NCBI RefSeq assembly: GCF_028368995.1
Contig: NZ_JAQNDL010000003.1
Span: forward strand, 448,001 to 512,000
Reading direction: 5' to 3'
DNA from: Nannocystis bainbridge
Lineage (GTDB): Bacteria > Myxococcota_A > Polyangia > Nannocystales > Nannocystaceae
Length of the DNA: 64,000 bases
Position numbers and translations under genes: made by a program. The notes beneath the pieces were generated by a model. That model worked only from the letters and a program-made list of their open reading frames with translations, was not told the origin of the DNA and ran no database searches. Each line of letters opens with the position of its first letter. Positions within the stretch are counted from its first letter, which is position 1. Positions 5,829-45,985 of this stretch are shown in pieces.

Positions 5829-5863
5829 TACATGTCCCTTTCGACATGTCCCTTAAAACATCC
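5829..5863. repeat. TGTC-N6-GACA 14-bp box array
   Basis: CATG/CATC cores at 5831, 5845, 5859. Confidence 0.8.
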
Positions 5864-5889
5864 TCGACGCGAGCTCGACGCGTCCTCGC

Positions 5890-6453
5890 TCACAGCCACG
5901 ACCCGAGCGTCAGCGACAGGGTCAGCGTCTCGGCCACGCCTCTGCCCTTGAACTGCACCATGTCGATCGCCCCCTCGGCTCCGATGAGGAACCGCTTGCC
6001 GACCCGGCCCCAGATGCCGACGCCGAGCCCGTAGTGATACGCATCGGCCGCGCCGACCTCGACGCGCGCCCGTCCGGTCGCGAACCGGTGGCTGTAGCCG
6101 CCGCGCAGCAGCATGTAGCCGAACGCCCGGCGGTTGACCGCGCCGAGCCGCAGCTCCGGCGCCAGGTGCAGCGTGCGGTCGAACCCGGTGGTCCGGCGGT
6201 CGACCATCTCGTAGCCGGCGCGGCCGCCGAACGCGACAGCGAACCCGCCGCTGGCCCGGAACACCCCGATCGACCCGCCGATCGCCGCGCCCGGGCGATA
6301 GTCCGCCAGCACGAACGCCGCCGGGTCGACGCGCAGGTAGCCGCGCAGGCAGCCCATCGCCTGTCCTTCGCGCCAGCCCGGGCACCGCGGCTCCGCGGCG
6401 GCCGCCGCCGGCACCAGCCCGATCCACAGCCCCAAAAGTGGCGCCCAGCGCAT
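5890..6453 (-). CDS. Putative small outer-membrane beta-barrel protein
   Basis: Signal peptide MRWAPLLGLWIGLVPAAAAAE, alternating Gly/aromatic beta strands, C-terminus LSLTLGSWL. Confidence 0.7.
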   Translation of the reverse strand: MRWAPLLGLWIGLVPAAAAAEPRCPGWREGQAMGCLRGYLRVDPAAFVLADYRPGAAIGGSIGVFRASGGFAVAFGGRAGYEMVDRRTTGFDRTLHLAPELRLGAVNRRAFGYMLLRGGYSHRFATGRARVEVGAADAYHYGLGVGIWGRVGKRFLIGAEGAIDMVQFKGRGVAETLTLSLTLGSWL

Positions 6454-6600
6454 CGACCGGACACTGTGACCGCACTCTTGCGCGCAGCAATCGCCGCCCG
6501 CGAGCCCAGCGACGCGGCGCACAGGCGATAATTGCGCCCCGTCACGCGCCCGCCTCTTTACGCCCCGCGCGCCTCTGCTAGCCTGCGCGCCACGAATCGC

Positions 6601-7051: not shown

Positions 7052-8203
<1,152 letters not shown>

Positions 8204-8271: not shown

Positions 8272-11200
8272 GTGGCCGGCCCCGGAGACACCCAAGCGCC
8301 CCGCGCCGGCGCCTCGGAGCTGGACGCGACCACGGCCCCGCCCGCGCTTTCGGCCAGGGACCCGCTCGCCACCGTCGCCAGCGCCAGGCCAGCCCCGCCG
8401 GTCCACGACCCGCTCGCCACCGTCGCCAGCGCCAGGCCGGCCCCGCCGGTCCACGACCCGCTCGCCACGATCGCCAGCGCCAAGCCGCAGTGGGACGCCC
8501 CCGCGCCGGGCGAGCGCGACGCCGCCGGTCCGCCGCGGATCGGTCGCTTCGTGGTCCTGCGCGAGGTCGGCCGCGGCGCGATGGGGGTCGTCTACGCCGG
8601 CTACGACGAGGAGCTCGACCGCCGCGTCGCGCTCAAGTTGGTCCAGACCAGCGGCCACGACGACCCCTCGTTCGGCCGCGCCCAGCTGCTGCGCGAGGCC
8701 CAGGCGCTGGCCCGCCTCACCCACCCCAACGTCGTCGCCGTCCACGAGGCCGGCGAGTTCCGCGGCGCCGTCTTCATCGCCATGGAGTACGTCGACGGCG
8801 TCGACCTCCACCGCTGGCTGGCGCAGGCGCCCCGCAGCTGGCGCGAGATCGTCGCCGCTCTGCGCCAGGCCGGCGAGGGCCTGCGCGCCGCCCACGACGG
8901 CGGCCTGGTCCACCGCGACTTCAAGCCGAGCAACGTGCTCGTCGGCGCCGACGGCCGCGTCCGCGTCGCCGACTTCGGGCTCGCCACCCGGCGCGGAAGG
9001 ACAGGTTCTTCGGGACATGTCCCGAAGACCACGTCACCGCTGATCACCGCCGAGGCCCTGGCGACCCTCGCCGGCAGCGGCGCGCTGATCGGCACCCCCG
9101 CTTACATGGCGCCGGAGCAGCTGCGACGCGAGCCGGCCACCGCCGCCAGCGACCAGTTCGCGTTCTGCGTCACCCTCTACGAGGCGCTGTACGGCCGGCG
9201 CCCGTTCACCGGCGACACCCTCGAGGTCCTCGCCGAGCACGTGCTGCACGCCGAGCCGCCGCCGGCCGCGCCCGACCCGCGCGTGCCGCAGTGGCTGCAC
9301 GCCGTGCTCGTGCGCGGCCTGGCCAAGGATCCCGCGCGCCGCCACGCCGGCATGGCCGAGCTGCTCGAGCTGCTCGGCCGCGATCCCGAGGCCGAGCGCC
9401 GGCGCACCCGTCAGCGGCTGCTGCAGATCGCCGTCGCCGTGGCCGCCACCGTGATCGTCGTGCTCGGCGGCGTCGCGGCCACCCGCGCGCTGGTCCGCGC
9501 CACCGACGAGCGCCGCGCCGAGGCCCGCCTCGACGTGCTGCGCGGCCAGCTCACCGCCCTCACCGTCGCCCGCAAGCCCGACGAGGCCGCCCGCCTGTTC
9601 GCCGCCTTCGCCGCCCTGCCCGACAACCGCGGCACCGCGGCCCTGGCCCGCGCCTACCGCGAGTGGGGCGAGGCCCAGACCGACCCCGCCGCCGCCATCG
9701 ACGCCCACGCCGGCGCCTACATCGCCGCGCGCACCCGCGAGGACCAGGCCGCCGCCCTGCGCCTGCTCGCCCTGCGCCTCGCCGACAGCCGCAACTTCAC
9801 CGCCGCGGCCGCCGCCGTGGCCGCCCTCGACGCCCGCGCCCCCGAGCTCGCCGGCGACCCCCAGCTCGCCGGCCTGCGCCTGGCCGCCGCCCTCGACCGC
9901 CGCGACCTGCCGGCCGCCCGCGCCGCCCTCGACCGCCTGCCGGGCGACGATCCGAGGAGGTCTTACGGACATGTCCTTGAGAACATGTCCTCGGGGACAT
10001 TCATCGCCCGCACCGCGATCGGCCAGCGCCGCGGGGTCGACCCCGAGTTCACCGTCGGCGACTTCGACGGCGACGGCCGCCTCGAGCTGGCCACCCACGC
10101 CGACCAGCGCGAGTCGGTGGTGGTGCTGCGCGCCGACCCGAGCCTCACGCGCGTGGCCGAGGTGCCGGCCCCCGGCCTCGCCGCCGCCGCACGCATCTTG
10201 CCGCCCGCGCTCGGCGGCGAACCACTGCTGCTGCTCGGGTTCGAGAACCCTGGCGGCATCGGCGACGCCTTCGTCCGCTACGCCGTCCACCCCGCGCACG
10301 CCGGCCCGAAACTTCACGAGTGGCTCGACAGCGCGGTCCTCGGGGCCGCCGTCGCCGACCTCGACGGTGACGGCCGGGCCGAGCTCTACACCGGCAGCGG
10401 CCCGTACGCCCGCAAGCTGCGGCAGACCGCTCTGGATCCTCAAGGCGCGTGGCAGACCCGGCCCGCCCACCCCTCGACTGACGCCGCCATCTCCGACATC
10501 AACGCCGTGCTCGCCGGCGACCTCGACGGCGACGGCCGGGCCGAGCTCGTGGTCGTCGCCGGCCCGTGGTCGGCCTACGACGTCCGCGTGTTGCAGGCCG
10601 GCGACGACGGCCGCCTGCGCATGCTGGCCCGCCGCAGCCTCGGCTTCGTCGAGTCGGCGGTGCTGCTGCGGGCCGGCGGCGAGCTGCGGATCGCCGCCAC
10701 CAAGCGCGACGACTACCCCAACCCCGGCCGCTTCTCCGAGGCCGCCCCGTACGGCGAACCCGAGGGCCTCTACGTGCTCGCGCTCGACGGCGACACGCTG
10801 GCCACGCGCCAGCACTTCGCGCTGCCCGAGGGCGCCGAGCCGCGCTCCGGGCCTCGCTGGCTGCGCGTCGTCGACCTCGACGGCGACGGCGTCGACGACC
10901 TCGTGGCCGAGAGCGCGCACGACCTGGCGATCCACCGCGGCGACGGCGAGGCCTTGCAGGCGCCGCTGCGGCTCGCCGGCGTGCACGTGCGCGCCGCCGC
11001 CGACTTCGACGCCGACCCCGCTCACGAGCTCCTGGTCGTCTTGCCCGGCGACGGCGACAACCTCGTCATCCTCGGCGCCGGCGACACCCCGCTGCCCGCC
11101 ATCGACCGCCCCGAGCCCGAGGCCCGGCCGATCGGCGCCGTCTCCGACCCCGCGCTCGTCGACGCCTGGCAGCACGCCGAGGAGCTGGCCGCCATCGGCC

Positions 11201-12876
11201 TGCCGCGCCGCAGCGCCGACGAGCTGGCCGCCATCGCCCGCCTCTCGGAACATGCCCATGAGGACATGCTCCTTCGGGCAGCCGATCTCTACGCCGCCGC
11301 CGAAGCGCACGCCCTCGCCGCCGAGCACTACCTCGCCGCCGCCGCCAGCCCCGACCTGGCCGCGCGCGCCCTGGCCGGCGCGATCGCCAGCCGGCGCGCC
11401 CTCGGCGACTACGCGGCCGCGCTCGAGCTCGCGGTCCGCCGCGCCGCCCTGCCCGGCCTCGACCTCCGGATCCGCCGCGAGGCCGAGGCCGAGCTCGACG
11501 CCCTGCGCCGGGCCACCGCCCAGCGCCCGACGCTCGCGCTCCGCTTCGATCGCCCGCTCGATCCGTCGTGGCGCGTGTTCGACCCGCTGTCGTTCGCCCG
11601 CAGCCCCGGCGACGGCAGCCTGTCCCTTCAGACATCCGCCGATCGCGTGCTCGCCGAGTTCCCGCTCGAGTGGGACCGCGGCACCACCTCGCTCACCGTC
11701 GACGGTGCGCTCGGTGACCTCGAGTGGGGCAGCCACCTGACCATCGCCGTCACCCCGGTCGACGGCGACGACATCTACCTCGGCGTGCGCGCCGAGTCGC
11801 GCGGCCGCAGCGAGCGGCCCGAACAGAACGTCACCCCCGTCACCGGCGCCAACGGCAACCTCGGCTTCTACGGCCTCTCGCTCCCCCCCGGCGGGTCGCG
11901 GCGCTTCCGCGTCGGCATTCATCACTTCCCCGACCTCGGCACCGCCCACCTCGAGCTCGCCACCGACGGCGAAGCGCCGCGGCGGGTCGTGCTGCGCCAG
12001 GGCCCGCAGTCGCCGCCGCCCGGCCCGCTGCGCCTGCGGATCCTCAGCCGGCCCGTCCAGCCGAGCAGCGTCGCCGACCTGCAGGTGTTCGCGATCGAGA
12101 TGGTCGGCCTGCGCCGCGGCACCCTGCCGGCGAGCCCGAGCGCGGACGACCCGTGGCGCGCGGTCGCCCGGCTGATCGCCGAGGACGAGATCGACGCCGC
12201 GCTCGAGCGCCTCGCCACTGCCCCGGCCGCCGCTCCCGAGGCGCTGTGGCGCGTCGACCTGCTGGCCCGCACCGGCCGCATCGACGACGCCGCCGCGGCC
12301 TTGCGCACCAGCCTCGCCGGCCTCGCCGAGGACCACCCGTTCCACGCGCGCCTGCGCCAGCGGCTCATGCGCGACCCCGACAACTTCATCCTCGCGGCCA
12401 AGCGCGTGCTCGGGCCGGCGCTGTACGACCTGTTCGTGGACCCGAGCCGGCTCGAGTACACGTGGCGACCGGCGCGGATCCGTCATCACCTCGCCGACCT
12501 CGCCGACCTGCCGGTGACGCTGCCCGAGCGCGCCAGCGCCGACGCCCGCCGCCACCATCGCAACGCCCTGTACCTGCGCGGCTTCGCCTGGCAGCGCGCC
12601 GGTCGCTACGACCACGCCCTGCGCGACCTCGAGGCCGTGCTCCCGCTGCTCACCGAGTCGGACGACGCGCCCATGCGCAAGTACGTGCTGCGCCGCCTCG
12701 TCGACGCCAGCATCCACATGCGCGACCCGACCCGCGCGCGCCGGTGGATCACCGCGGCCCTGCTCGAGTCGCAGACCGCCGACCTCCTGCTCGAGGGCCT
12801 GCGCCAGCGCCCCGGCGTCGAAGCGATCTTCACCTCCGCCGACTGGGCCCGCTTCGAGGCGCTCACGCGCCGCTGA
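8272..12876 (+). CDS. Transmembrane Ser/Thr kinase with FG-GAP repeats and TPR-like helical regions
   Basis: VGRGAMGVVY, VALK, HRDFKPSN, DFG, GTPAYMAPE; TM segment; repeated DxDGDGxxE motifs. Start estimated at GTG 8272. Confidence 0.88.
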   Translation: MAGPGDTQAPRAGASELDATTAPPALSARDPLATVASARPAPPVHDPLATVASARPAPPVHDPLATIASAKPQWDAPAPGERDAAGPPRIGRFVVLREVGRGAMGVVYAGYDEELDRRVALKLVQTSGHDDPSFGRAQLLREAQALARLTHPNVVAVHEAGEFRGAVFIAMEYVDGVDLHRWLAQAPRSWREIVAALRQAGEGLRAAHDGGLVHRDFKPSNVLVGADGRVRVADFGLATRRGRTGSSGHVPKTTSPLITAEALATLAGSGALIGTPAYMAPEQLRREPATAASDQFAFCVTLYEALYGRRPFTGDTLEVLAEHVLHAEPPPAAPDPRVPQWLHAVLVRGLAKDPARRHAGMAELLELLGRDPEAERRRTRQRLLQIAVAVAATVIVVLGGVAATRALVRATDERRAEARLDVLRGQLTALTVARKPDEAARLFAAFAALPDNRGTAALARAYREWGEAQTDPAAAIDAHAGAYIAARTREDQAAALRLLALRLADSRNFTAAAAAVAALDARAPELAGDPQLAGLRLAAALDRRDLPAARAALDRLPGDDPRRSYGHVLENMSSGTFIARTAIGQRRGVDPEFTVGDFDGDGRLELATHADQRESVVVLRADPSLTRVAEVPAPGLAAAARILPPALGGEPLLLLGFENPGGIGDAFVRYAVHPAHAGPKLHEWLDSAVLGAAVADLDGDGRAELYTGSGPYARKLRQTALDPQGAWQTRPAHPSTDAAISDINAVLAGDLDGDGRAELVVVAGPWSAYDVRVLQAGDDGRLRMLARRSLGFVESAVLLRAGGELRIAATKRDDYPNPGRFSEAAPYGEPEGLYVLALDGDTLATRQHFALPEGAEPRSGPRWLRVVDLDGDGVDDLVAESAHDLAIHRGDGEALQAPLRLAGVHVRAAADFDADPAHELLVVLPGDGDNLVILGAGDTPLPAIDRPEPEARPIGAVSDPALVDAWQHAEELAAIGLPRRSADELAAIARLSEHAHEDMLLRAADLYAAAEAHALAAEHYLAAAASPDLAARALAGAIASRRALGDYAAALELAVRRAALPGLDLRIRREAEAELDALRRATAQRPTLALRFDRPLDPSWRVFDPLSFARSPGDGSLSLQTSADRVLAEFPLEWDRGTTSLTVDGALGDLEWGSHLTIAVTPVDGDDIYLGVRAESRGRSERPEQNVTPVTGANGNLGFYGLSLPPGGSRRFRVGIHHFPDLGTAHLELATDGEAPRRVVLRQGPQSPPPGPLRLRILSRPVQPSSVADLQVFAIEMVGLRRGTLPASPSADDPWRAVARLIAEDEIDAALERLATAPAAAPEALWRVDLLARTGRIDDAAAALRTSLAGLAEDHPFHARLRQRLMRDPDNFILAAKRVLGPALYDLFVDPSRLEYTWRPARIRHHLADLADLPVTLPERASADARRHHRNALYLRGFAWQRAGRYDHALRDLEAVLPLLTESDDAPMRKYVLRRLVDASIHMRDPTRARRWITAALLESQTADLLLEGLRQRPGVEAIFTSADWARFEALTRR
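8359..8482 (+). repeat. 48-bp tandem repeat (DPLATVASARPAPPVH x~2.5)
   Basis: Visible in DNA and protein at the kinase N-terminus. Confidence 0.85.
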
Positions 12877-15115: not shown

Positions 15116-15151
15116 CGACATGTCCCCGAGGGCATGCCCCGAAGGGCATGT
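15103..15151. repeat. TGTC-N6-GACA array at the thyX / phosphatase convergent junction
   Basis: Cores at 15105, 15119, 15133, 15147. Confidence 0.85.
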
Positions 15152-16034: not shown

Positions 16035-16186
16035 GACATGTCCGCAAGGACATGCATGGCATCACCTGCCTGAGATGGCCTCATGGACATGCCCTTTAAA
16101 ACATGTCCATGAGGCCATCCAGCCGGAGCACGCCGCCTCCCCCTCATCCAAAACTTTCGCAGGACATGCGCCTTTCAAACATGTCC
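16035..16186. repeat. Cluster of three TGTC-N6-GACA arrays
   Basis: Cores 16037/16051/16065; 16088/16102/16116; 16165/16180 (last spacing 15). Confidence 0.8.
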
Positions 16187-16338
16187 TCGAAGTCACAAGA
16201 CCCGTCTCGGGCCCGCTCTCGGGCCTCCGACCCTCGCCGCGCGCACCCGCCCGCCTTCGCCGCAGATCGGCCCTGCGCCCCCTGCCGGCGCCACTGGCTT
16301 GCTCGCGGCCGTCCGCCCGTTCACCCTCTGCGGACGGC

Positions 16339-32273: not shown

Positions 32274-32348
32274 GACATGTCCTCGAGGGCATGCCCCATC
32301 GGCCATGTCCCTTGCGACATTCCCCGAAAGACATGCCCCCGAGGACAG
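32274..32348. repeat. TGTC-N6-GACA array with six phased cores between regulator and kinase
   Basis: Cores 32276, 32290, 32304, 32318, 32332, 32346. Confidence 0.9.
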
Positions 32349-37139: not shown

Positions 37140-37232
37140 AAACCTGTCCTCAAGGACATCTTCTAAAGTAGAACTCGCGAGAGCAGCCTGGCCCCGACCT
37201 CGCCGCCTCCGAAACCTGTCCTCAAGGACATC
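37140..37232. repeat. Two identical boxes aaacctgtcctcaaggacatct
   Basis: Copies at ~37140-37161 and ~37212-37233, each containing TGTCC-tcaa-GGACA. Confidence 0.85.
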
Positions 37233-37865: not shown

Positions 37866-37985
37866 CGCGCGAGCTTGCCACGGCCGCCGCAAAACGGCCA
37901 AGCCTCCCCGAGACATGTCCCCGGGGACAGGCCCTTTCATGCGCAGCGCGAGCCTCGGCCCGCGCTGTCCTCTATACTCTCGCCG

Positions 37986-39596
37986 ATGCCGAGCGACCTC
38001 GAGCGCGTCCTCGCCTACCACGAGCGCACCGCCCACCGGCCTGGTCGTTACGCCGCCTCGCTCGGCTACCTCGACTGGGCCACCCAGCCCAACCCCTTCC
38101 GCCTCTACGACGGCGCCGAGCGTCACCCGCTCCCGCGCGCCCATCCACATGTCTCCGAGGACAGCCCGACCTGGGCCGACCTGTTCCGCGGCCCCGTGCG
38201 CCCCCCCGCCGCGCTCGACCTCGACCTGCTCGGCTCGCTGTCCTTCCACGCCTTCGCCCTCGCCGCCTGGAAGCAGGCCGGCAGCTCGCGCTGGTCCCTG
38301 CGCGTCAACCCCTCGAGCGGCAACCTCCACCCGACCGAGGTCTACCTGCTCGCTGGCCCGCTCGTCGGCCTGTCCGATCGGCCAGGTCTCTACCACTACA
38401 CCCCCCTGCTCCACGCCCTCGAGCGCCGCGCCGCCCTCGATCCCGACGCATGGCGAGCCCTCGAATTCCCCGGCGTCCTCGTCGGCCTGTCGTCGATCGC
38501 CTGGCGCGAGGCCTGGAAGTACGGCGAGCGGGCCTTCCGCTACTGCAACCACGACGTCGGCCACGCCATCGCCGCGCTCGCCTTCGCCGCCGCGCTCCAC
38601 GGCTGGCGCGCCGTGCTCGTCGATCCGCTGGCCGACGATCGCCTCGCCGCCGTGCTCGGCCTCGCCGACCTCGGCGAAGGCGACGAGGCCGAGCACCCCG
38701 ACTGCCTGCTCGCCCTCCTGCCCGCCGACATCCCGCTGACCCTCGACCCCGCCGCCGTCCTCGACCTCACCCCGGCCGCGCTCACGGGCGTCCCCAACCA
38801 GCTCAGCGAGGGTCACCACGAGTGGCCGATCCTCGCGGAGATCGCCGCCGCCACGACCCACCCCGCCGCCACCCCGCGCCCGTGGCCGCCCCCGCCGCGT
38901 CCCCGCGCGTGCGACCTCGAGGTCCCGGCCGCGCCGTTGATCCGCCGCCGCCGCAGCGCCGTCGCCATGGACGGCCGCACCGGCCTCACCGCGGCTGGCT
39001 TTTACGACATGCTCTTGCGGACATTGCCCGAAGGACAGCCGTTCGCCGCGCTCCCGTGGCGCCCGGCGGTCGACCTGGCGCTGATGGTCCACCGCGTCGC
39101 GGACGTCGAGCCCGGCCTCTACCTGCTCGTCCGCGAGCCCGCCCGCGCCGACCGCTGGCGCGCCGCCCTGCCCGACGCCACGTGGCAGGCCCCGCCCGGG
39201 TGCCCGCCCGAGCTGCCGCTCGTCAGCGTGCGCGCCGGCGACGTCCGCCGCCCCGCCGCCCTCGTCAGCTGCGCCCAGGACATCGCCGCCGACGGGGCCT
39301 TCGCCGCCGCCATGTTCGTCGACCTGCGCGCCGAGCTCGAGCGCGAGGGCCCGGCCCACTACCGGCGCCTGTTCTGGGAGACCGGCGCGATAGGTCAGCT
39401 GCTCTACCTCGAAGCCGAGGCCCTCGGCATCGCCGCCACCGGCATCGGCTGCTTCTTCGACGCGCCCACCCGCGACCTGCTCGGCCTGCCTGAAGCCGAC
39501 GGCCTGCGCAGCCTCTACCACTTCACCGTCGGCGGCCGCGTCGAAGACGACCGCCTGCGCACCCACGACGCCTACCACCACCTCGAGCGATCGTGA
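37986..39596 (+). CDS. SagB/ThcOx-like double nitroreductase-domain protein
   Basis: YHERT, LDWATQPNPFR, LRVNPSSGNLHPTE, WKYGERAFRY, RRRSA, ATGIGCFFD. Confidence 0.9.
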   Translation: MPSDLERVLAYHERTAHRPGRYAASLGYLDWATQPNPFRLYDGAERHPLPRAHPHVSEDSPTWADLFRGPVRPPAALDLDLLGSLSFHAFALAAWKQAGSSRWSLRVNPSSGNLHPTEVYLLAGPLVGLSDRPGLYHYTPLLHALERRAALDPDAWRALEFPGVLVGLSSIAWREAWKYGERAFRYCNHDVGHAIAALAFAAALHGWRAVLVDPLADDRLAAVLGLADLGEGDEAEHPDCLLALLPADIPLTLDPAAVLDLTPAALTGVPNQLSEGHHEWPILAEIAAATTHPAATPRPWPPPPRPRACDLEVPAAPLIRRRRSAVAMDGRTGLTAAGFYDMLLRTLPEGQPFAALPWRPAVDLALMVHRVADVEPGLYLLVREPARADRWRAALPDATWQAPPGCPPELPLVSVRAGDVRRPAALVSCAQDIAADGAFAAAMFVDLRAELEREGPAHYRRLFWETGAIGQLLYLEAEALGIAATGIGCFFDAPTRDLLGLPEADGLRSLYHFTVGGRVEDDRLRTHDAYHHLERS

Positions 39597-40019: not shown

Positions 40020-42326
40020 TCAGGCGGACTGCTCGCGGCTCGTGACGAGCGCATCGCTCGTCACGATACTTTCAGACATGCCCTCAGGAGCATGTCCTTT
40101 AGAGCATGTCTCTTTCGACATATCCTGAAGAACATGCTCGATGCGCCAGGCGTGCCAGCTCTCCCCGCCGAGCACGTCGACCAACCGGACCCGCGCCACC
40201 CACGGCCCCTCGCCGGTGAGCGCGAGCCACCCGCTGTCGGCGTCGAGCTCCCGCCGGTTCCGTGTCCGCGCCGCCGCGAACGCCGGGCGATGCGGCGACT
40301 GTCCCTCGCCGGCCTCCGCGATCGGCCGAGCGACGATGGCCCAGGACGCCGACCCCGCGCCGGCACTCTCCCCGGACGCCAGACCCTCCGGTGCAACCGC
40401 AGCCACCCGCGCCTGCGCCTCGCCGACACTCTCCCCCGATGCAGCCGCAGCCGCCCGCGAAGCCTCGCCCGCCAGCGCCGGCTCCTGCTCCGAAGTCTCC
40501 GCGTCCGCTTGCACTTCGCCGCTGCGAACGCCTCGTGTCGAGGCTTCGCCCGCCGCCGAACAAGCCGCGCCCTCTCCCGCCTCTGACAGTCCCGTCTCGC
40601 CGTCCGCGACGCGAGCCACCGCGCCGATCGCCGGCGACGCCGTCGCAAATTCGACCGACCACGCCTCGACCGCCGCGCGAGCATCCCCCGCCGTCGCCAG
40701 CGCCGCCGTCGCCCGCGTCGGCGCCGAGAACCGCGCCCCCTCCAGAGTCGCCTGCACGCGCAACCCCGGGCCCGCCGCCGCGACCGCGAACGTCACCGCG
40801 ACCACCGGCCGCTCGCTCCACGGCGGCTCCCCGGCGTGCCCGCGCGGGTCGAGCAGGGCGCGCCGCAGCTGCAGGCAGACCACGCTCACGCCTGTCCCTT
40901 CGGCCAGCTCGGTGCCGGCCGGGAAACTCCACGCCCACGCCATCACCTCGAGCTTGCGCAGCCCGAGCCCCGCCGCGCTCGTCGCTGCCGCCGCCACCTC
41001 CGCGGCCGTCACCTCCCCGTCGAGCGGCCCGACCCACACCGCAGTGTCCCCCGCGATCCCCGTCACCCCGCCCGCGGCCGCCGCCCTGGCAGCGTCGCCG
41101 GCGATCTCCATCACTCCGCCGGTTGCCGCCGCCCTGGCAGCGTCCGCCGCGTTCCTCGTCACCCCGCCGGTTGCCGCCGCCCCGGCAGCGTCCCCCGCGT
41201 TCCCCGTCACCCCGCCCGCCGCCTGCGCCCCGCGCAGCCGCAGCACCGCGGCCGGCCACGGATCGGCCTGTCCCGAGAGCCAGATTGCGCGCTCCGCCGG
41301 CCCCAGCCCGGCGCGCACGAACCCGATACCTGGCTTTTCGGCCATGCGCGCGTGGGCCAGCTCGATCGCCGCGGCCGCGCTGTCGCAGCCGATCCATCGC
41401 CGCCCCAGCGCGTGCGCGGCCGCCAGCGTGGTCCCGGCGCCGCAGAAGAAATCGGCCACCAGCCCGCCGGGGTTCGAGCTGGCGGCGACGATCCGGCGCA
41501 GCAGGCTCTCGTTCTTCTGCGTGGCCCAGCCGGTCTTCTCGCGCGAAAAACTCTTGATCTGGATCGAGTCGAGCGAGTCGCCGCCGCGCAGCCGCCACTC
41601 GGCCGGGCTCGCGTTCCACACGTCCTCGACCGGCACGCCGCCCTGCTGGTCGGCCTCGCCCTTGCGCCGCCGGTACTCGCTCGGGTGCGCGTTGACCTGG
41701 CGGTGGAACACGAACCGCTGCGGGTCCTTGACGTAGAAGTAGATGAGGTCGTGGTTGCGGATCCAGTTGTTGGCCCGCGCCTTGAACCCCGAGATCCAGC
41801 CGACCCGCCACACGATCTCGCGCTGGAAACAGCCGGGCCCGAAGATCTCGTCGAGCAGCAGCTTCACCGCGTGACCGACGATCGGGTCGACGTGCACGTA
41901 GAGGCTGCCGTGCGGCGCCAGCAGGCGGTGGATCCGCCGCAGCCGCGGGTCCAGCATCTGCAGCAGCCCCGCGACCCCGCCGGGCCAGCGATCGCTGTAG
42001 GCCCGCGAGCGCAGCTCCGGCCCCTCCGCGTCGGCCCCGACCCGCGTCGTCCGCTCGAACTCGTGGCCGGTCGCGAACGGCGGGTCGATGTACACCAGGT
42101 CGATCGCCCCCGCGTGCGTCGCCATCAGCGCGTCCATCGCCAGCAGGTTGTCGCCGCCGACCAGCAGCCCCGGCGCCCGCGTCGGCTCGGCCTCGACCCC
42201 GCCGATCACCTGCTCGACCTGCAGCCCCAGCGAGCGCGCGGGCACCTCGACGCGCGCGCCGTCAGGCCCGTACTTGCCCGGCCACACCACCTCGACCGCG
42301 CCGCTTGCCGATCGTGGACGCGGCAT
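40020..42326 (-). CDS. Site-specific DNA methyltransferase (N6/N4, beta class, Mod-like), orphan in this window
   Basis: GDNL, DLVYIDPPF, TQKNESLLRRIV, ADFFCGAGTT, RRWIGCD. Confidence 0.88.
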   Translation of the reverse strand: MPRPRSASGAVEVVWPGKYGPDGARVEVPARSLGLQVEQVIGGVEAEPTRAPGLLVGGDNLLAMDALMATHAGAIDLVYIDPPFATGHEFERTTRVGADAEGPELRSRAYSDRWPGGVAGLLQMLDPRLRRIHRLLAPHGSLYVHVDPIVGHAVKLLLDEIFGPGCFQREIVWRVGWISGFKARANNWIRNHDLIYFYVKDPQRFVFHRQVNAHPSEYRRRKGEADQQGGVPVEDVWNASPAEWRLRGGDSLDSIQIKSFSREKTGWATQKNESLLRRIVAASSNPGGLVADFFCGAGTTLAAAHALGRRWIGCDSAAAAIELAHARMAEKPGIGFVRAGLGPAERAIWLSGQADPWPAAVLRLRGAQAAGGVTGNAGDAAGAAATGGVTRNAADAARAAATGGVMEIAGDAARAAAAGGVTGIAGDTAVWVGPLDGEVTAAEVAAAATSAAGLGLRKLEVMAWAWSFPAGTELAEGTGVSVVCLQLRRALLDPRGHAGEPPWSERPVVAVTFAVAAAGPGLRVQATLEGARFSAPTRATAALATAGDARAAVEAWSVEFATASPAIGAVARVADGETGLSEAGEGAACSAAGEASTRGVRSGEVQADAETSEQEPALAGEASRAAAAASGESVGEAQARVAAVAPEGLASGESAGAGSASWAIVARPIAEAGEGQSPHRPAFAAARTRNRRELDADSGWLALTGEGPWVARVRLVDVLGGESWHAWRIEHVLQDMSKETCSKGHAPEGMSESIVTSDALVTSREQSA
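40040..40066. terminator. Perfect 12-bp stem hairpin, possible terminator
   Basis: tcgtgacgagcg-cat-cgctcgtcacga followed by tacttt, in a convergent region. Confidence 0.5.
40075..40137. repeat. TGTC-N6-GACA array with five phased cores
   Basis: Cores 40077, 40091, 40105, 40119, 40133. Confidence 0.88.
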
Positions 42327-42329
42327 GTC

Positions 42330-42752
42330 TCAAGGGACAGGTGGGGGCGGCGGCAGCTGCAGCTCCGGCTGCGACAGCGAGCGCACGTAGGCGACCAGGA
42401 CCTTGAGGGTCGGCTCGCTGAAGTGCGGGAAGCTCGGCATGGTCGGCGGCCGCCCGCCACGGATCGATCGCCGCAGCCGCTCGTCGCTGAGGGTGCTCAT
42501 GAACCCGGGGTCGGTCAGGTCGCGCACGCCCGCGACCTCCGGCAGCCCCTTGCCGTCATGGCCGTGGCAGCGGGCGCAGTTCTGGGCGAAGATCTTGGCC
42601 CCGGAGATGTCCCGCTCGGGCCCGGTCGGCTCATGACAGCCCGCCAGCAGCCCGGCGAACAACATGGCACTTCGGACATGTCCGAAAAGCCCGCCGCGCG
42701 CCCCGGACGGCGAGGCGGGAGCGTGCGCGCGCGGGTCAGCGGTGGCGGACAT
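42330..42752 (-). CDS. Monoheme c-type cytochrome lipoprotein
   Basis: LAGC, CARCH heme motif, distal TMPSF. Start uncertain (42665, 42752 or 42776). Confidence 0.88.
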   Translation of the reverse strand: MSATADPRAHAPASPSGARGGLFGHVRSAMLFAGLLAGCHEPTGPERDISGAKIFAQNCARCHGHDGKGLPEVAGVRDLTDPGFMSTLSDERLRRSIRGGRPPTMPSFPHFSEPTLKVLVAYVRSLSQPELQLPPPPPVP

Positions 42753-42925
42753 GCGCGGCGACCTTAGCAGAGTCACCGCCGCAGCGTCCCCACGTTCGAC
42801 CTGCGACCGCGCGTCCCGGGTGACTCACCGACGCTCGGGCCGCGACCGTGACGGGCTCTCCTGGGCCGCTGGCGCGACCCTGCAGCGTCCCCGCGAGTCG
42901 GCGTTCAGCACTGCCTGGGCCCCTG

Positions 42926-43828
42926 TCAGCGCCGCGGCAGCAGCGTCAGCGCTCGCCCCGGCTGCAGCGCGTCGGCGGGCTCCTGGTCCGCGGGCCGCGG
43001 CACCGGCCGGGCGCGGATCCCCGCGTGCTGCGGCGAGGTCGTCGGTGGAAGCTGCGGGGGCGGCGCGCTCGGCGGCGTCGTCATCGGCGGCGCCGTCGTT
43101 TCCGGCGTCGGCGCCGGCGCGTTCGGGCCCGGCGGGCTGGCCGGCGGCGCGATCGTCGGCCCCGGCGCCGGGTACTGCACCGGCCCTTCGACGCGCGTGT
43201 TGCCGTCCTCGGTGAGGATATAGCCCTCGGCGTCGACCGCGGCGTCGGCCGGCGGGATGTAGTCGCCGTTCGGCGTCAGCAGCCCGAGGCGCATGCCCAG
43301 GCTGTCGTTGTAGATGTTGACCGCGCGGGCGTAGCCCGTCTCGGCCCGGCGGTAGAACACGCCGGCGGCGATCGCCAGGCCCACGGTCGCCAGCACGCTG
43401 CCGAGCATCACCGAGTTAGCCCCGTTCAGCTTCTGGAAATCGAAGCCTTCGCGGGCCGTCGCCGCCCCGCTGGCGATGAACAGCAGCCCCGTGACCGCCC
43501 CCAGCGCCGCCAGGATCCGCGAGCGCCGCAGCTCCTTGTAGGGCAGCGCCTCCGAGCTGTTCTTCTCCGAGCGGAGGATCGCGTCGAGCGACTGCCAGCT
43601 GCGCTTGGTCGCCATCGGGTGCAGGCCCTTGGTGTAGCGGGTCCCCTGCGGCTCCTCGTGGCGGAAGATCCAGTTCTCTTTGAGCGCCTTCTCGCGCTCG
43701 GCCCGATCCTTGATCGTCTCGAGCTTGGCGAAGTCGGTCGGCTGCAGCTGCGGCGTCAGCGACATGCACCCGCTCACGCAGAGGCACAGCGCGAGGACCA
43801 GGGGCGAGGGTCGGCGGGCGCGATTCAC
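42926..43828 (-). CDS. Hypothetical lipoprotein with TM segments and Pro-rich tail
   Basis: VSGC lipobox, two hydrophobic segments. Confidence 0.75.
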   Translation of the reverse strand: MNRARRPSPLVLALCLCVSGCMSLTPQLQPTDFAKLETIKDRAEREKALKENWIFRHEEPQGTRYTKGLHPMATKRSWQSLDAILRSEKNSSEALPYKELRRSRILAALGAVTGLLFIASGAATAREGFDFQKLNGANSVMLGSVLATVGLAIAAGVFYRRAETGYARAVNIYNDSLGMRLGLLTPNGDYIPPADAAVDAEGYILTEDGNTRVEGPVQYPAPGPTIAPPASPPGPNAPAPTPETTAPPMTTPPSAPPPQLPPTTSPQHAGIRARPVPRPADQEPADALQPGRALTLLPRR

Positions 43829-43963
43829 GTCGCTCTCACGCTAGCACGGACCGCCGGCGCTGCTAAGAGCCCCCGCGGGCCGCGCGAGCCTGCCCTGCCG
43901 TCCGCTGGCTGCAGCCACGCACGCCGGAGCGACCCGGAGTTCGGCCCCGGCGACGCATGGGTG

Positions 43964-45985
43964 TCACGACCCCAGGTGCGCAACTCGCTGCGGATCTACG
44001 TCCGGCACCGGTTTGGCGGCGGGCGGCGCTGCCACGGCCTCGGCTTGCCCGGCCGTCCTGGTCCGCCGGGCCCCGGCTTGCGCTGCCGCCTTGCGCAGGC
44101 GACGTCCGATGGCGTTCTGGTGATCGGCCGCCCGCTGCACGAGCTCCGGGTCGCCGGGCGCCTCCAGCGTCCGCGCCATCGTTCGCGCCAGCGCCGGCAT
44201 CGTCAGCACGTCGACGAGGTTGTGGCCGACCACGCGGCGCACCGCCTCGCGCGCCCGGGCCTCGTGGGGCTCGCGCAGCGCCGCCCAGAACACCTCCGGG
44301 ATCGCCCGCCCTGCGATGTCGCCGTCGCGCCGCACCCCCAGCTGCGTCCGCTCGAGCGTCGTCAGGCGGCAATCCGGCCCGCGCCCGCGCCACAGCCGGC
44401 GCGCGACTGGCAGCAGATCGAGGTGCGTCCCGGCCAGCGCGTCGGTCGGCAGCCCGCACCGGCGCAGCCGCCCGCGCAGCAGCGGCAGGTCGAAGCTCGC
44501 CCCGTTGAACGTCACCAGCGGCCCGCCGAGCGCCCGCAGCCGGGCCTCGAGGTCCGCCAGCAGCGCCGCCTCGCCCGACAATTGCGTCAGCAGCCACTGC
44601 TCGATCTGCCACCCGGCCTCGTCCAGCGTCGCCAGCCCGACCACGAACGCCACCGTGCCCGCCCCGTGCCCGAGCCCGGTCGACTCGGTGTCGAGAAACA
44701 CTGGCCTTTTGGACATGTCCTGTTCGCCATGTCCGTAAAGCCATGTAAATGCCTTCTGCCACTCCGCCGGCCCCGGCAGCTCGAGCCCGCGGCCGACCAG
44801 CAGCGGCGGCCTGGCCCCGAGGCACGGCCAGCGCGTGACCTCGCGGACGAACCCCGCCCCCGGCGCGACGCCGGGCAAGGCAGGGGTGGCGCGCTCGCCC
44901 TCGAACCGCCCCATCCGCCGCCAAAGCGCCGGCCGAGTCGGCGCACCGCCGTCCAGCGGGCCCGGCCGCGAGGAGAGCGACACCTCGCGCCCGAGCTCGC
45001 CCGCAACACGAGCCGCGGGGCTCCTGTCCTCATCCTCTCGTCCCGCGACCTCGTCCGCCCGCGTCCGAGCCCCGGCCTCTCGCCCCGCAACTTCGCCAGG
45101 CAACACGGGCGACGGCCTCACCGCTCCGACCCCTCGCTCCCCAACCTCTTCAGGTCGCGCAGGCGATCGCACCAACGCACCTGCCCCTCGCTCCCCAACC
45201 TCCGCAGGCCGTGGCGCCGTCATCCCGCGCCCGCTCTGCCCGCCGAACTCTGCCAGCGGCCCGGCGATCGCAGCGCCGATCCTCTCTCCGACACTGACAG
45301 CCCCGCGACGCTCCGGCGGCGCGACCGTGAAATCGCGTAGATCTTCGGCTCTGCGACGGCTCTCGACCGGACTCGGCCGTGGGTTCGTCCCCGCGGCGAT
45401 GATCTCCCCGTTGGCCGTCACCTTCGAGCGGTTCGGGCGTGCCCGCGACGTCCACAACACGTACGTCCCCGACACCCGCGGATCGATCCGCCGTTCCTCC
45501 GCACCTGCCCCTCCAGACAGCCCGCCTGCGCGGCCCGCCAATGCCGGCGCCCGCTCGCCCGCGCGATTCGTCGGACCTGTCCCTTCAGACAGCCCAGAAT
45601 CTGCCAGCGCCCGCGCGCTCGTGCGTCCTGCCGGCTGCGCGTCGTTCAGAGCTGGCCGGCTCTCGCCCCGAACCTTCTGTCCCGCCGCGACCGGCGCCTC
45701 GCTCCCCGCAGCGCTCCGCGTCATCCCCGCCGAAACCCGCCGATCGCCGCTCCCCCGACCTGCCCCTTCGGACAGCCTACCCTGGCTCATCCCACCCGGC
45801 TGCCCGCTCGTCGCGCGCGACGGACTCGGCGGCCCGTCCGTCCCAACGGAAGAACTCTGCGGCTCGCTCGCCCTCGGCGAGCTCTGTGGCTCGCCTGCCG
45901 CCGTCCCGCCTGCCGGCTCGGAGACGCTGTCCTGCTCGCGGCGCCCGAGCGCCCGCTCGAACCGCCGCAGCAGCGCCGAGCTCAC
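43964..45985 (-). CDS. YprB/MrfB-like RNase H-fold exonuclease with long low-complexity N-terminus
   Basis: FLDTESTGL..GAGT, LVTFNGASFDLPLL, HLDLL, HNLVDV; GTGA overlap with the helicase stop. Confidence 0.85.
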   Translation of the reverse strand: MSSALLRRFERALGRREQDSVSEPAGGTAAGEPQSSPRASEPQSSSVGTDGPPSPSRATSGQPGGMSQGRLSEGAGRGSGDRRVSAGMTRSAAGSEAPVAAGQKVRGESRPALNDAQPAGRTSARALADSGLSEGTGPTNRAGERAPALAGRAGGLSGGAGAEERRIDPRVSGTYVLWTSRARPNRSKVTANGEIIAAGTNPRPSPVESRRRAEDLRDFTVAPPERRGAVSVGERIGAAIAGPLAEFGGQSGRGMTAPRPAEVGERGAGALVRSPARPEEVGERGVGAVRPSPVLPGEVAGREAGARTRADEVAGREDEDRSPAARVAGELGREVSLSSRPGPLDGGAPTRPALWRRMGRFEGERATPALPGVAPGAGFVREVTRWPCLGARPPLLVGRGLELPGPAEWQKAFTWLYGHGEQDMSKRPVFLDTESTGLGHGAGTVAFVVGLATLDEAGWQIEQWLLTQLSGEAALLADLEARLRALGGPLVTFNGASFDLPLLRGRLRRCGLPTDALAGTHLDLLPVARRLWRGRGPDCRLTTLERTQLGVRRDGDIAGRAIPEVFWAALREPHEARAREAVRRVVGHNLVDVLTMPALARTMARTLEAPGDPELVQRAADHQNAIGRRLRKAAAQAGARRTRTAGQAEAVAAPPAAKPVPDVDPQRVAHLGS
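44700..44746. repeat. TGTC-N6-GACA array inside the exonuclease gene
   Basis: Cores 44714, 44728, 44742, plus degenerate 44700. Confidence 0.75.

Follow-up and report, generated by a model that had tools for sequence, protein, structure and literature searches.

The closest described cases to the repeat presented here are the cyanobacterial palindrome HIP1 and the uptake sequences USS and DUS. Known uptake sequences are asymmetric 9- to 12-mers, and to our knowledge they neither are bipartite palindromes nor form strictly phased tandem arrays. Protein-binding site systems such as parS/ParB, matS/MatP, SlmA and Noc comprise tens of sites confined to certain chromosome regions. HIP1 is a hyperabundant palindrome present both within and between genes (relevant passages of PMC5861425 and PMC4390886), and for uptake sequences shares within open reading frames of 65%, 49% and 34.5% are given for three species (relevant passages of PMC2817400). 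For the window analysed here, a stretch of 64,000 nucleotides from Nannocystis bainbridge, it had been predicted from the letters of the DNA that positions 5829–45776 contain dispersed, 14-bp-phased arrays of a palindromic box TGTC-N6-GACA.

The box unit, its abundance and its lineage range

The genome carries about 10^4 copies of the box, which is over-represented at exactly one spacing, N4. The unit is the 14-bp palindrome TGTCC-N4-GGACA, and abutting boxes create GGACATGTCC recurring at 14-bp steps. In the scanned genome (11,048,555 bases in five contigs) the perfect box occurs 1987 times compared to 0–16 times for the spacings N0–N3 and N5–N9 and to three matches of a reversed-pattern control. 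Boxes with at least 9/10 half-site matches number 6245 at N4 and 101–330 at other spacings, those with at least 8/10 number 13775 compared to 2159–6253, an excess of approximately 9800 in 11.05 Mb or about one box per 1.1 kb. The pattern TGTC-N6-GACA of the original prediction is enriched over the N5 and N7 controls as well as over all remaining spacings between N0 and N12 (3663 genome-wide compared to 29–136 at each). In the window it occurs 28 times with 0.50 expected (shuffle maximum 2), and GACATGTC occurs 22 times with 0.87 expected (100 shuffles, maximum 5). The predicted clusters are real, as a box of at least 8/10 lies within 40 bp of all 28 named coordinates. The predicted interval holds 34 of the 37 window boxes with at least 9/10, but the system extends far beyond it and is genome-wide.

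The box and not the junction decamer GGRCATGYCC is the unit, in line with the prediction, because 1158 of 2828 TGYCC-N4-GGRCA boxes (41%) stand alone and only 182 of 1771 decamers are without a partner half-site. Half-sites and spacing were correctly described as the conserved parts, but the half-site comprises five instead of four base pairs, with weak flanks in addition (R-S-M before and K-S-Y after the box, ACM...KGT in summary form). These flanks are symmetric in isolated perfect boxes, and before TGTCC of isolated boxes C is commoner than A. The centres are AT-richer as claimed, with 45% A+T compared to 29% in the first 100 nt past stops. Box variants are mostly transitions (T/C at position 3, A/G at position 12), which are about equally frequent in weak boxes.

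The expected autocorrelation of CATG was found with a maximum at 14 (3736 pairs) and further peaks at 28 (2073), 42 (1586), 56 (751) and 70 (383), the background being about 60–480. Similarly, distances between boxes of at least 9/10 peak at 14 (485), 28 (274) and 42 (165), any other distance being represented at most 65 times. Within 5829–45776, nine places give a total of ten period-14 rows in Tandem Repeats Finder (two rows overlap at 15119), and their 64–85% matches are consistent with variable spacers. Most neighbouring spacers are unrelated; identical adjacent spacers are present in 93 of 2784 pairs compared to 35 expected, and an array at C3:1085845 contains eight near-identical units. 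The spacing of clusters is near random (coefficient of variation 1.25).

The box family is lineage-wide. Comparison with related myxobacteria revealed that perfect boxes are abundant across Nannocystis (333–1987 per genome) and fewer elsewhere, with 67–295 in two further genera of the family, 6–20 in one more genus (controls 2–7) and 0–10 in the remaining 13 genera, which is near the controls (0–6).

Placement in the genome

Boxes are present on all contigs and are not restricted to origin or terminus. Among 8120 genes called by our own crude gene caller, which missed at least one gene of the window, 2687 have a box at most 300 nt past the stop, and in 1006 of these the first box begins between −10 and +19 nt. 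The density of boxes (at least 8/10) is 9.44 per kb in convergent, 3.35–3.68 in tandem and 1.37 in divergent regions. Convergent regions of at least 100 nt contain approximately two to three boxes each, independent of their length. Within long intergenic regions, boxes are densest 0–75 nt past stops and sparsest 0–100 nt before starts, and the 100 nt before start codons show a four- to five-fold avoidance compared to other intergenic DNA. Inside genes, 786 of the 1987 perfect boxes are found, occupying all three reading frames unevenly (445, 277 and 64), and the box-bearing frames show a normal GC3. Moreover, boxes are scarce in low-GC stretches (0.9–2.7 per 10 kb below 70% GC compared to 5.3–8.7 above). 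The boxes of the window are listed in Table 1.

Table 1. Boxes and box arrays in the window (positions in the window; gene strands in brackets).
Positions	Feature	Context
5833..5860	2 abutting boxes	29 nt past stop end of gene 5890-6435 (-)
8173..8200	2 abutting boxes, both at least 9/10	over final codons of gene 7052-8203 (+)
9004..9031	2 abutting weak boxes (8/10)	within open frame 8272-12876
9972..9999	2 abutting boxes, in frame	1534-aa frame 8272-12876, between kinase and FG-GAP domains
11253..11266	single box and degenerate neighbour box	within frame 8272-12876
11621..11634	single box	within frame 8272-12876
15121..15148	2-3 abutting boxes	between convergent genes, 5 nt past stop of 13418-15115 (+)
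16039..16195	4 boxes (16039, 16076, 16104, 16182)	first box 9 nt past TGA 16027-16029
19439..19562	4 boxes	between convergent genes, first 13 nt past stop of 16339-19425 (+)
21275..21351	2 boxes	first 17 nt past stop of 20625-21257 (+)
22353..22394	3 abutting boxes	end 2 nt from stop end of 22397-23638 (-)
23971..24053	longest window array: 5 boxes in 14-bp register (23971-24040) and partial unit	
24541..24554	single box (9/10)	within gene 24058-24666 (-)
32278..32347	4 boxes in register (offsets 0, 14, 28, 56)	13 nt past stop of 31584-32264 (+)
33771..33897	3 boxes in register and one at 33884	20 nt past stop of 32389-33750 (+)
37145..37230	2 identical single boxes, 72 bp apart	downstream of stop end, 37308-37865 (-)
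37916..37929	single perfect box	between divergent genes, the two starts at 50 and 56 nt
38150..38384	2 single boxes	within gene 37986-39596 (+)
39010..39037	2 abutting weak boxes	within gene 37986-39596 (+)
40093..40134	3 abutting weak boxes	last 40 codons of DNA-methylase-domain gene 40020-42290 (-)
40893..40906	single box	within gene 40020-42290 (-)
42326..42339	single box	35 nt past start end of 40020-42290 (-)
42665..42678	single weak box (8/10)	
44702..44743	3 abutting boxes	near 5' end within called gene 43964-44914 (-); start call uncertain
45506..45774	3 isolated boxes (45506, 45578, 45761)	CCTG...CAGCC flanks, long intergenic region

In three genomes of the same genus, an array also occupies the site at 15121, with other box numbers and spacers. 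The TGA preceding the boxes at 16039 is in relatives the stop codon of a gene, which our caller left uncalled here. The array at 23971 lies 17 nt (4 nt with the partial unit) past the stop end of gene 24058–24666 (-), and relatives carry zero to three boxes at this place. The box at 37916 runs counter to the avoidance of promoter regions. The box at 42326 additionally covers position 42330, where a weak gene call, 42330–42665 (-), has its stop end.

Conservation of half-sites and origin in place

Conservation was assessed with one same-genus genome over 450 kb (300,517 aligned bases). At box half-sites, 82 of 88 A/T third-codon bases are unchanged, compared to 1672 of 4171 (40%) outside boxes (Fisher p = 2e-25) and 53 of 135 (39%) in flanks 4–45 nt away (p = 2.5e-17). 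For G/C third-codon bases the respective values are 229 of 235 at half-sites and 87.8% and 86.4% elsewhere. Of the 110 genic boxes in this comparison 23 are unaligned and 87 alignable; in the relative, 66 of the latter match at least 9/10, 15 match 8, five match at most 7 and one carries an indel, and reciprocal ascertainment gave 66, 9 and 6. Identity in intergenic boxes is 88% for half-sites and 48% for spacers, with 84% in other aligned intergenic DNA. The half-sites and not the spacers are under purifying selection or an equivalent directional force, at intergenic as well as at synonymous genic sites. Selection acting per site and a directional process, such as biased uptake with recombination or biased repair, would both fit this sequence pattern.

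For four genic boxes an alignment with other genera of the family was obtained. Three of them face gap-free non-box sequence in at least some genera, and for the fourth the outgroups differ by indels of 1–2 nt only and share the left half-site. The examined copies thus arose mainly by substitution in place. Among 173 orthologous intergenic regions a box is present in both genomes in 42, only in the own genome in 13, only in the relative in 12 and in neither in 106 (odds ratio 28.5), and box numbers are unequal in 65 of 94 regions. Arrays hold their position between species and the number of units changes.

A putative dimer-binding site and alternative explanations

Tentatively, and with somewhat less than even confidence, we favour that the boxes are about 10^4 duplex-DNA recognition sites for a putative symmetric, abundant, dimeric intracellular protein probably acting at gene ends. 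One dimer would bind per box, and in arrays adjoining dimers would follow every 14 bp with a turn of approximately 120 degrees per step, three steps making four helical turns. At gene ends such phased dimers might line up into short protein-DNA filaments. These filaments could influence the boundaries of transcription units or the local topology of the DNA, possibly as roadblock, insulator or in supercoil handling between converging transcription units. The same protein may also use genic and other intergenic sites, at a lower density. Only the strict 14-bp register suggests that binding is cooperative. Recognition of the duplex by a symmetric dimer, as originally proposed, gains indirect support from independent halves, a symmetric spacer, synonymous conservation and sense-strand mismatches of the G-U type that hardly exceed those of the C-A type (within genes 1175 compared to 1170). 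Several observations speak against the favoured reading. Tight binding would turn genic sites into roadblocks, yet genic sites are conserved. Neighbouring half-sites at junction decamers are anti-associated (A..T 376, A..C 452, G..T 362, G..C 147; p = 7e-20), which simple independent binding does not predict. Terminators and uptake sequences, as well as tolerated selfish elements, likewise lie at 3' ends. Finally, arrays are able to fold stably as RNA, and G-U-type mismatches are in small excess in tandem 3' regions.

Rather unlikely, the box might be a self-signal for uptake or recombination like USS/DUS, preferred by a surface or periplasmic uptake receptor or by a recombination protein. Biased uptake and homologous recombination would spread box-making substitutions, also into genes (molecular drive), and post-stop pairs or arrays would be tolerated or co-opted as terminators. 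The thousands of copies at approximately one per 1.1 kb resemble published uptake sequences, the genic share of perfect boxes (786/1987) is comparable with the published shares (relevant passages of PMC2817400), and the uneven use of all three frames, the origin of examined genic boxes mainly by in-place substitution, the scarcity in low-GC stretches and the lineage specificity fit as well. The own genome has matches for ComEC (one), DprA (one) and ComEA-like HHH_3 (four), but competence genes are widespread and the same searches are positive in 10–11 of 14 control genomes, so that these matches tell no more than that the machinery is not lacking. Moreover, uptake bias leaves the 14-bp register and the avoidance of the 100 nt before starts unexplained, a bipartite palindrome in phased arrays is unlike the uptake sequences described above, the near-random cluster spacing speaks against it, and the searched literature contains no record of natural transformation in Nannocystis.

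It is improbable that the boxes act as hairpins of RNA or single-stranded DNA at mRNA 3' ends, i.e., as REP-like stabilisers or as terminators without U-tract, maybe read by a protein. Their position directly past stops and between convergent genes would suit such a role, a single box can pair into a stem of 5 bp closed by a loop of 4 nt, stems of 10 bp are available to neighbouring decamers, and the array at 23965–24060 folds as RNA to −36.3 kcal/mol (z −3.46). Sense-strand mismatches of the G-U type slightly exceed those of the C-A type in tandem 3' regions (902 compared to 761). However, the counts of non-consensus Watson-Crick pairs among 305 unselected middle boxes are 62, 26 and 15, with 57.1, 21.4 and 10.0 expected; compensatory pairs show no excess within boxes, flanks show no consistent covariation, one-sided mismatches are common, and the two halves of a box are not associated (p = 0.66) and vary independently. 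The spacer, i.e., the loop, has no strand asymmetry relative to transcription (TTCG 90, CGAA 86), TTTT follows within 12 nt after only 2.5% of 1337 tandem-context arrays, the RAYT family PF01797 has no match in the own genome (the same search is positive in 6 of 14 control genomes), and Rfam yields no match in the window. Independent halves and missing compensation, asymmetry, RAYT genes and U-tracts argue against REP elements, mobile elements and RNA hairpins, so that the REP-like alternative of the original prediction is disfavoured, and the synonymous-site conservation of the 786 genic perfect boxes points in the same direction.

Very improbable is a by-product of methyltransferase or mismatch-repair bias as proposed for HIP1, by which near-matches would be converted and the box itself be functionless. 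It would fit a hyperabundant palindrome within and between genes as HIP1 (relevant passages of PMC5861425 and PMC4390886) and the predominance of transitions. However, repair bias does not predict a 10-base bipartite target with a free 4-base centre, 14-bp arrays and post-stop placement, the half-site conservation in Nannocystis counts against it, and the junction CATG is dispensable, isolated boxes favouring C over A before TGTCC. Hardly credible is a selfish or neutral repeat, either a REP/MITE with a transposase of no known type or a 14-bp minisatellite growing by slippage, for which the variable unit number, some near-identical units and the location in permissive 3' regions speak, but RAYT has no match in the own genome, most neighbouring spacers are unrelated, 41% of boxes are solitary, a 14-bp insertion would break the normal-GC3 frames in which the 786 perfect boxes sit, genic boxes meet outgroup non-box sequence with at most short indels, and half-sites are conserved far above neutral sites.

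Comparison with known systems

No description of the box was found in the searched literature, and it points to a genome-wide protein-recognition signal without description therein. The suggested role comparable to parS/ParB, matS/MatP, SlmA or Noc is not supported: each of these four has tens of regional sites, whereas the genome analysed here carries about 10^4 boxes on all contigs, past stops and within genes. In being a hyperabundant palindrome present within and between genes, the Nannocystis box is like HIP1.

The Box, Its Spacing and Its Register

The genome of Nannocystis bainbridge (11.05 Mb, 71.5% G+C, five contigs) carries a 14-bp palindromic box, TGTCC-N4-GGACA, that is bound to one exact spacing of its two half-sites. 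Perfect boxes occur 1987 times, an approximately 360-fold over-representation, while the same half-sites at spacings of 0-3 and 5-9 are found only 0-16 times. With at least nine of the ten half-site bases matching, 6245 boxes are present compared to 101-330 at the control spacings, and with at least eight matching 13775 compared to a control mean of approximately 3960. The excess at this last threshold over the control mean amounts to approximately 9800 boxes, i.e., one per 1.1 kb or approximately 1.2% of the genome. The original prediction had described dispersed arrays of TGTC-N6-GACA between 5829 and 45776, and all 28 of the 28 coordinates it named have a box within 40 bp; within the window, which covers C2:448001-512000, this shorter form is present 28 times (0.50 expected) and GACATGTC, the junction of two abutting boxes, 22 times (0.87 expected). 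The predicted preference for the N6 gap extends to the whole genome, in which TGTC-N6-GACA occurs 3663 times and any other gap from 0 to 12 only 29-136 times.

Boxes are frequently chained in a strict register. At 23969-24053 units of TGTC-N6-GACA lie end to end, placing GACATGTC every 14 bp with 6-bp centres that all vary. Genome-wide, the autocorrelation of CATG positions shows the anticipated peak at 14 together with peaks at 28, 42, 56 and 70, and the distances between boxes are dominated by 14 (485), 28 (274) and 42 bp (165), each other distance being represented at most 65 times. Since 1158 of the 2828 occurrences of TGYCC-N4-GGRCA have no adjoining half-site and only 182 of 1771 junction decamers lack a partner at box spacing, the autonomous unit is the 14-bp box and not the decamer GGACATGTCC. 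Isolated perfect boxes have weak symmetric flanks (A/G, C/G, C/A before and G/T, G/C, T/C after the box). Within the spacer, the central N4, A is avoided at the first base and T at the last, and its A+T content of 45% compared to 29% in the first 100 nt past stop codons bears out that the centres are A+T-richer than their surroundings.

At the junctions, adjacent half-sites are anti-associated. The genome-wide counts for decamers of the form GGRCATGYCC are 376 for A..T, 452 for A..C, 362 for G..T and 147 for G..C (chi-square 83, p 7e-20), with examples in the window at 15121-15148 and 16085-16117, so that a mixed decamer, GGACATGCCC or GGGCATGTCC, is preferred to either perfect palindrome. A general palindrome avoidance is not the source of this effect, RCATGY outside the boxes showing none of it (odds ratio 1.10). 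Super-palindromes of 28 bp are minor, adjacent spacers being reverse complements in 58 of 2784 pairs compared to 36 expected. One array of the genome (C3:1054309-1054420, on the third contig) has the variant junction GGACAGGYCC in place of GGACATGTCC.

Placement in the Genome

A plain ORF listing is uninformative at this G+C content (85 overlapping ORFs at 72% GC), and genes were therefore called by a codon-usage score; the home-made caller is approximate, with at least one gene of the window missed, and yields 8120 genes at 83.8% coding. Relative to these genes, 91% of the chains of at least three decamers are intergenic. Boxes with at least 8/10 matches are densest where genes converge, at 9.44 per kb; tandem intergenic regions have 3.35-3.68 per kb and divergent ones 1.37. 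A box of at least 9/10 is present in 51% of the convergent regions, and those of at least 100 nt have approximately two to three boxes each, independent of their length. Moreover, 2687 of the 8120 genes are followed by a box no more than 300 nt past the stop codon, and 1006 of the first boxes begin between -10 and +19 nt, while the profile 5' of start codons is flat. Within long intergenic regions the density is maximal 0-75 nt past stops and minimal in the 100 nt before starts.

A substantial fraction of the perfect boxes, 786 of 1987 (40%), lies wholly within genes, compared to 0-7 for the control spacings. These genic boxes are distributed unequally over the three reading frames (445, 277 and 64), the GC3 of their flanks is normal (median 0.942 vs. 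0.948) and many of them sit in low-complexity linkers. As an example, a frame of the window that encodes a protein kinase and FG-GAP repeats carries boxes in frame. The ATG at 9985 in this frame, one of two box-borne ATGs preceded by an AGGAGG, shares its reading frame with the FG-GAP part. Either a single kinase-FG-GAP protein with boxes in its linker may be encoded here, or two genes with the box array between them and without a stop codon.

On the scale of the genome, every one of the five contigs has boxes, at 10-108 per 100 kb. Box density climbs with the G+C content (r 0.57 in 100-kb bins), from 0.9 boxes per 10 kb below 66% GC to 8.7 above 74%, the low-GC stretches being set by composition alone. 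The gaps between box clusters are near-exponential and close to random (coefficient of variation 1.25), and a regular spacing is disfavoured: genic boxes keep no extra distance from their intergenic counterparts, the medians being 1863 nt for them and 1826 nt for randomly drawn genic positions. For the distribution relative to origin and terminus, the origin was placed on the first contig (C1, approximately 4.35-4.43 Mb, with dnaA at 4.35 Mb) and the terminus on the third (C3, approximately 1.47 Mb), and the total box density near either is undistinctive, total boxes near the terminus being mildly raised (294 vs. 226). Arrays of at least six boxes occur 10 times within 200 kb of the cumulative G-C maximum at C3:1,471,158 compared to 2.3 expected, a modest and post hoc excess (C3, approximately 1.27-1.67 Mb) for which p-values overstate the case. 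Contigs C3 and C4 are richer in long arrays overall.

Range and Conservation Between Genomes

The double-box pattern was found in nine of ten genomes of the same genus and in none of the 20 other genomes searched, and viral contigs searched with the same pattern gave no stretches. The perfect single box decreases in abundance stepwise from 333-1987 copies in four Nannocystis genomes, N. bainbridge included, to 67-295 in two other genera, represented by eight genomes, and 6-20 in a third, for which the controls give 2-7. In another 13 genera it numbers 0-10, compared to 0-6 for the controls, and control counts throughout the survey range from 0 to 10. Syntenic loci in four relatives have 9-14 boxes per 18-19 kb, compared to 0-1 at control spacings. 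At the stop codon of the gene 13418-15115, an array of three to four boxes is present at the same place in all three same-genus relatives examined with differing spacers; the site of 23971-24053 has 0-3 boxes in three such relatives.

Alignment of 450 kb of the genome to 400 kb of a same-genus relative (G007) gave 300,517 aligned bases. Among 173 orthologous intergenic regions a box is present in both genomes in 42, in N. bainbridge only in 13, in the relative only in 12 and in neither in 106 (odds ratio 28.5), and 65 of 94 regions have unequal numbers of boxes in the two genomes. The intergenic identity is 88% for half-sites, 48% for spacers and 84% for other aligned intergenic DNA; the value for spacers probably includes units that are aligned out of register. 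Of the 110 genic boxes, 87 could be aligned (23 unaligned), and their counterparts match the box at 9/10 or better in 66 cases, at 8/10 in 15 and at 7/10 or less in five, with one indel; for boxes taken reciprocally from G007 the numbers are 66, 9 and 6.

The conservation reaches the synonymous positions, in tests that cover one relative, 450 kb and home-made gene models, related genomes being non-independent samples. A or T at the third codon position, which is quickly lost elsewhere in this genome, is retained at 82 of the 88 positions in half-sites compared to 1672 of 4171 outside boxes (p 2e-25) and 53 of 135 in local flanks (p 2.5e-17). For G or C at the third position 229 of 235 are unchanged in half-sites, compared to 87.8% outside boxes and 86.4% in flanks. 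Alignment to other genera was possible for four genic boxes. Non-box sequence without gaps lies opposite three of them in at least part of these genera; opposite the fourth there are only 1-2-nt indels and a shared left half-site. These four were thus made mainly by substitution and not by insertion of a unit.

A Putative Dimeric Reader and Its Rivals

An exact spacing, two 5-bp half-sites that are conserved independently, a free but A+T-richer centre, symmetry between the strands and synonymous-site conservation together form the signature of a two-fold symmetric protein that reads duplex DNA. We infer from the sequence that the boxes are read by such a symmetric dimer, its binding, cooperativity and function being putative, as the original prediction had also proposed. 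The strict 14-bp register suggests an interaction between adjacent dimers or a steric constraint on their fit, each step of 14 bp corresponding to a rotation of approximately 120 degrees per box. Avoidance of the regions before starts, an enrichment past stops that goes beyond the free space available there and the roughly constant number per convergent region suggest an intracellular binder that acts at the ends of transcription units. In a more far-reaching form, which we consider rather improbable, Nannocystis and two sister genera would possess chromosome-wide gene-end marks, for which a dedicated abundant dimer loads on TGTCC-N4-GGACA and forms short filaments with a 14-bp step on chained boxes just past stop codons. 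These filaments would mark or insulate the boundaries of transcription units or manage the supercoiling between converging units, and the marks would be, in bacteria, the sequence-specified equivalent of insulator or boundary elements, kept by a selection strong enough to fix rare codons within genes. A search for the reader through boxes in divergent promoter regions was too unselective (208 gene-box pairs), and the genes adjoining the largest arrays gave no obvious lead.

The main rival is a self-signal for uptake or recombination that spreads by molecular drive. It accounts for the genic copies, for the scarcity of boxes in low-GC stretches and for the placement past stop codons (PMC2817400; PMC2397512). 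The genome has ComEC, DprA and ComEA-like genes, all of which are widespread. Natural transformation has reportedly been described for Myxococcus, and the literature searched contained no direct report of it. However, a self-signal leaves the palindromic bipartite form, the 14-bp register and the avoidance of promoter regions unexplained.

Alternatively, the boxes might act as a folded strand, the REP-like hairpin that the original prediction had given as its alternative. Arrays can fold stably as RNA (-36.3 kcal/mol, z -3.46), and a secondary hairpin role of the arrays is possible. Among 305 boxes picked only for their strong neighbours, non-consensus Watson-Crick pairs number 62, 26 and 15 compared to 57.1, 21.4 and 10.0 expected, in line with independence, the third and twelfth positions vary independently (p 0.66), and the flank pairs show no consistent covariation. 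Spacers oriented by the upstream gene have no strand preference. On the sense strand, mismatches of the G-U type are only slightly in excess of those of the C-A type, with 902 and 761 in tandem 3' regions and 1175 and 1170 in genes, and Rfam 15 gives no match at gathering score in the 64-kb window. An intrinsic (rho-independent) terminator was rejected, as the hairpin potential is present and the U-tract is absent at nearly all arrays, TTTT following within 12 nt in 2.5% of 1337 arrays; termination without a U-tract is possible.

Membership in the REP/BIME class and a mobile element were both rejected on the grounds that the Y1 transposase RAYT (PF01797) has no match in the genome (which is 90.5% complete, so that a gene may have been missed; the same search is positive in 6 of 14 control genomes), that 40% of the perfect boxes are genic and stems show no compensatory change, and that neighbouring spacers are mostly unrelated, many boxes are alone and most of the genic copies compared were formed where they stand. 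Slippage of a single repeat, which had been discounted on the varying 6-bp centres, is at odds with the unlikeness of neighbouring units over their full length, as only 93 of 2784 pairs of adjacent spacers are the same (35 expected) and most pairs differ at three to four of four positions; a few young arrays do exist. One array of eight near-identical 14-bp units (C3:1085845-1085956) looks like recent slippage; such young arrays show that units are gained and lost by slippage, which fits the change in unit number between species.

Further Features of the Window

The outer parts of the window, 1-5800 and 46000-64000, contain only 3 of its 37 boxes with at least 9/10 matches. From approximately 48 kb onward and at 2-6 kb the G+C content is lower (0.66-0.71 vs. 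0.71-0.78) and the GC skew weaker. The box-poor flanks may be more recently acquired DNA. At 15790-16030, two relatives (G005 and G010) have a gene of approximately 230 codons that ends ...TGCGCCGAGTGA directly before a box, of which only the last approximately 130 nt align in the window; the gene may survive here as a remnant or may have been replaced. The alike contexts of three isolated boxes suggest a longer repeat, of local extent, with a box inside. Three tandem repeats with a period of 48 bp (82-95% matches) were found, the first two of which probably encode protein repeats.

Positions of individual features in the window
Feature	Position	Strand	Copies	Remark
48-bp-period tandem repeat	8359-8486		2.7	within gene, unrelated to boxes
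48-bp-period tandem repeat	41041-41238		4.1	within gene, unrelated to boxes
48-bp-period tandem repeat	54729-54949		4.6	overlaps called gene 54716-55087, unrelated to boxes
Protein kinase and FG-GAP frame	8272-12876			1534 aa
AGGAGG in this frame	9954-9959			5' of two box-borne ATGs, 9971 and 9985
Alignable end of the gene of G005 and G010	15922-16054
Gene adjoining this stretch	15165-15791	-
DNA methylase gene	40020-42290	-		756-aa protein, N6_N4 DNA methylase domain (PF01555, E 1.1e-37), three weak boxes in last 40 codons
Isolated boxes	45506-45774		3	72 and 183 bp apart; longer alike contexts, CCTGYCCCTTCRGACAGCC then similar G+C-rich text

Novelty and Significance

The motif is undescribed in the part of the literature that was searched on Nannocystis repeats and palindromes and on myxobacterial REP elements. 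To our knowledge, a short motif kept by selection at approximately one copy per kilobase occurs in very few bacterial lineages (HIP1, USS/DUS), and the box adds a further such motif from a phylum not previously on this list. It offers experimental handles in its two-fold symmetry, which implies a dimeric reader, in the strict 14-bp register and in the sharp placement past stop codons, and its abundance, graded over three genera, allows a presence/absence search for the reader protein. A new nucleoid or gene-boundary protein might be found through the box, or it could be the first uptake-type self-signal beyond the two classical families. Moreover, the box may tell native from acquired DNA in these large genomes rich in natural-product genes, and it flags the 3' ends of genes for annotation.

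Comparison With Known Systems

The original prediction had compared the role of the sites to parS/ParB, matS/MatP, SlmA and Noc, whose sites are palindromes of 12-16 bp that are read by dimers and are in part genic. These systems have tens of sites in origin- or terminus-related regions; boxes on five contigs at 10-108 per 100 kb, free of any such regional restriction, do not belong to them, and we know of no consensus among the four that matches the box. The layout of 4-N6-4 with an A+T-richer centre is shared by TGTC-N6-GACA with the sites of CRP (GTGA-N6-TCAC) and FNR (TTGA-N6-TCAA), a resemblance of layout only, as copy number and placement of the box are unlike a regulon. The nearest known arrangement to the 14-bp chains would be, by analogy, the operators of MetJ (met-boxes) and Fur (Fur box arrays), gap-free tandem arrays of short palindromes in fixed register that bind one dimer per unit with interacting neighbours. 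However, these are few promoter operators of one regulon with a period of 8 or 6, whereas the boxes number approximately 10^4, avoid starts and have a period of 14 bp. REP/BIME elements are short palindromic units, often clustered, whose copies run into the hundreds or thousands and occupy 3' untranslated and convergent intergenic regions. The box resembles them in being a short, clustered palindrome at such sites, but their units are approximately 35 bp long, while the box has 14 bp, an unconserved spacer (loop) and no stem covariation.

Known uptake sequences are asymmetric single words, and we know of no phased arrays of them. The USS of Pasteurellaceae and the DUS of Neisseriaceae have thousands of copies at approximately one per kb, a third to two thirds of them genic, with reading-frame biases and an absence from genes without homologues in relatives (PMC2817400); inverted pairs lie directly past stop codons (PMC2397512), and lineage-specific 'dialects' exist (PMC3630211). 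The box is likewise hyperabundant, lineage-specific, both genic and intergenic and of substitution origin, the last point being drawn from four genic boxes. It differs in being two-fold symmetric and bipartite.

The cyanobacterial palindrome HIP1, GCGATCGC, is described as exceeding expectation 15- to 300-fold, with approximately one copy per gene and with conservation inside ORFs, between them and from genome to genome, and is taken to be held by selection; its function is given as unknown, no role at the peptide or RNA level was detected and nucleoid structure is suggested as a link (PMC5861425). The box shares the over-representation and the conservation inside ORFs and between them. HIP1 is also tied to two methyltransferases, with cognate GATC and CGATCG enzymes, and has a periodicity of 10-90 kb. 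It differs from the box in being a contiguous octamer of an unrelated lineage, whereas the box is bipartite with a free 4-bp centre, forms phased 14-bp tandem arrays and is strongly concentrated past stop codons. With the sequence TGTCC-N4-GGACA in place of GCGATCGC, the box is an analogue of HIP1 and not a member. In summary, it lies outside the REP/RAYT, HIP1, parS, matS, SlmA and Noc site classes, and the nearest known phenomena are HIP1 and USS/DUS.
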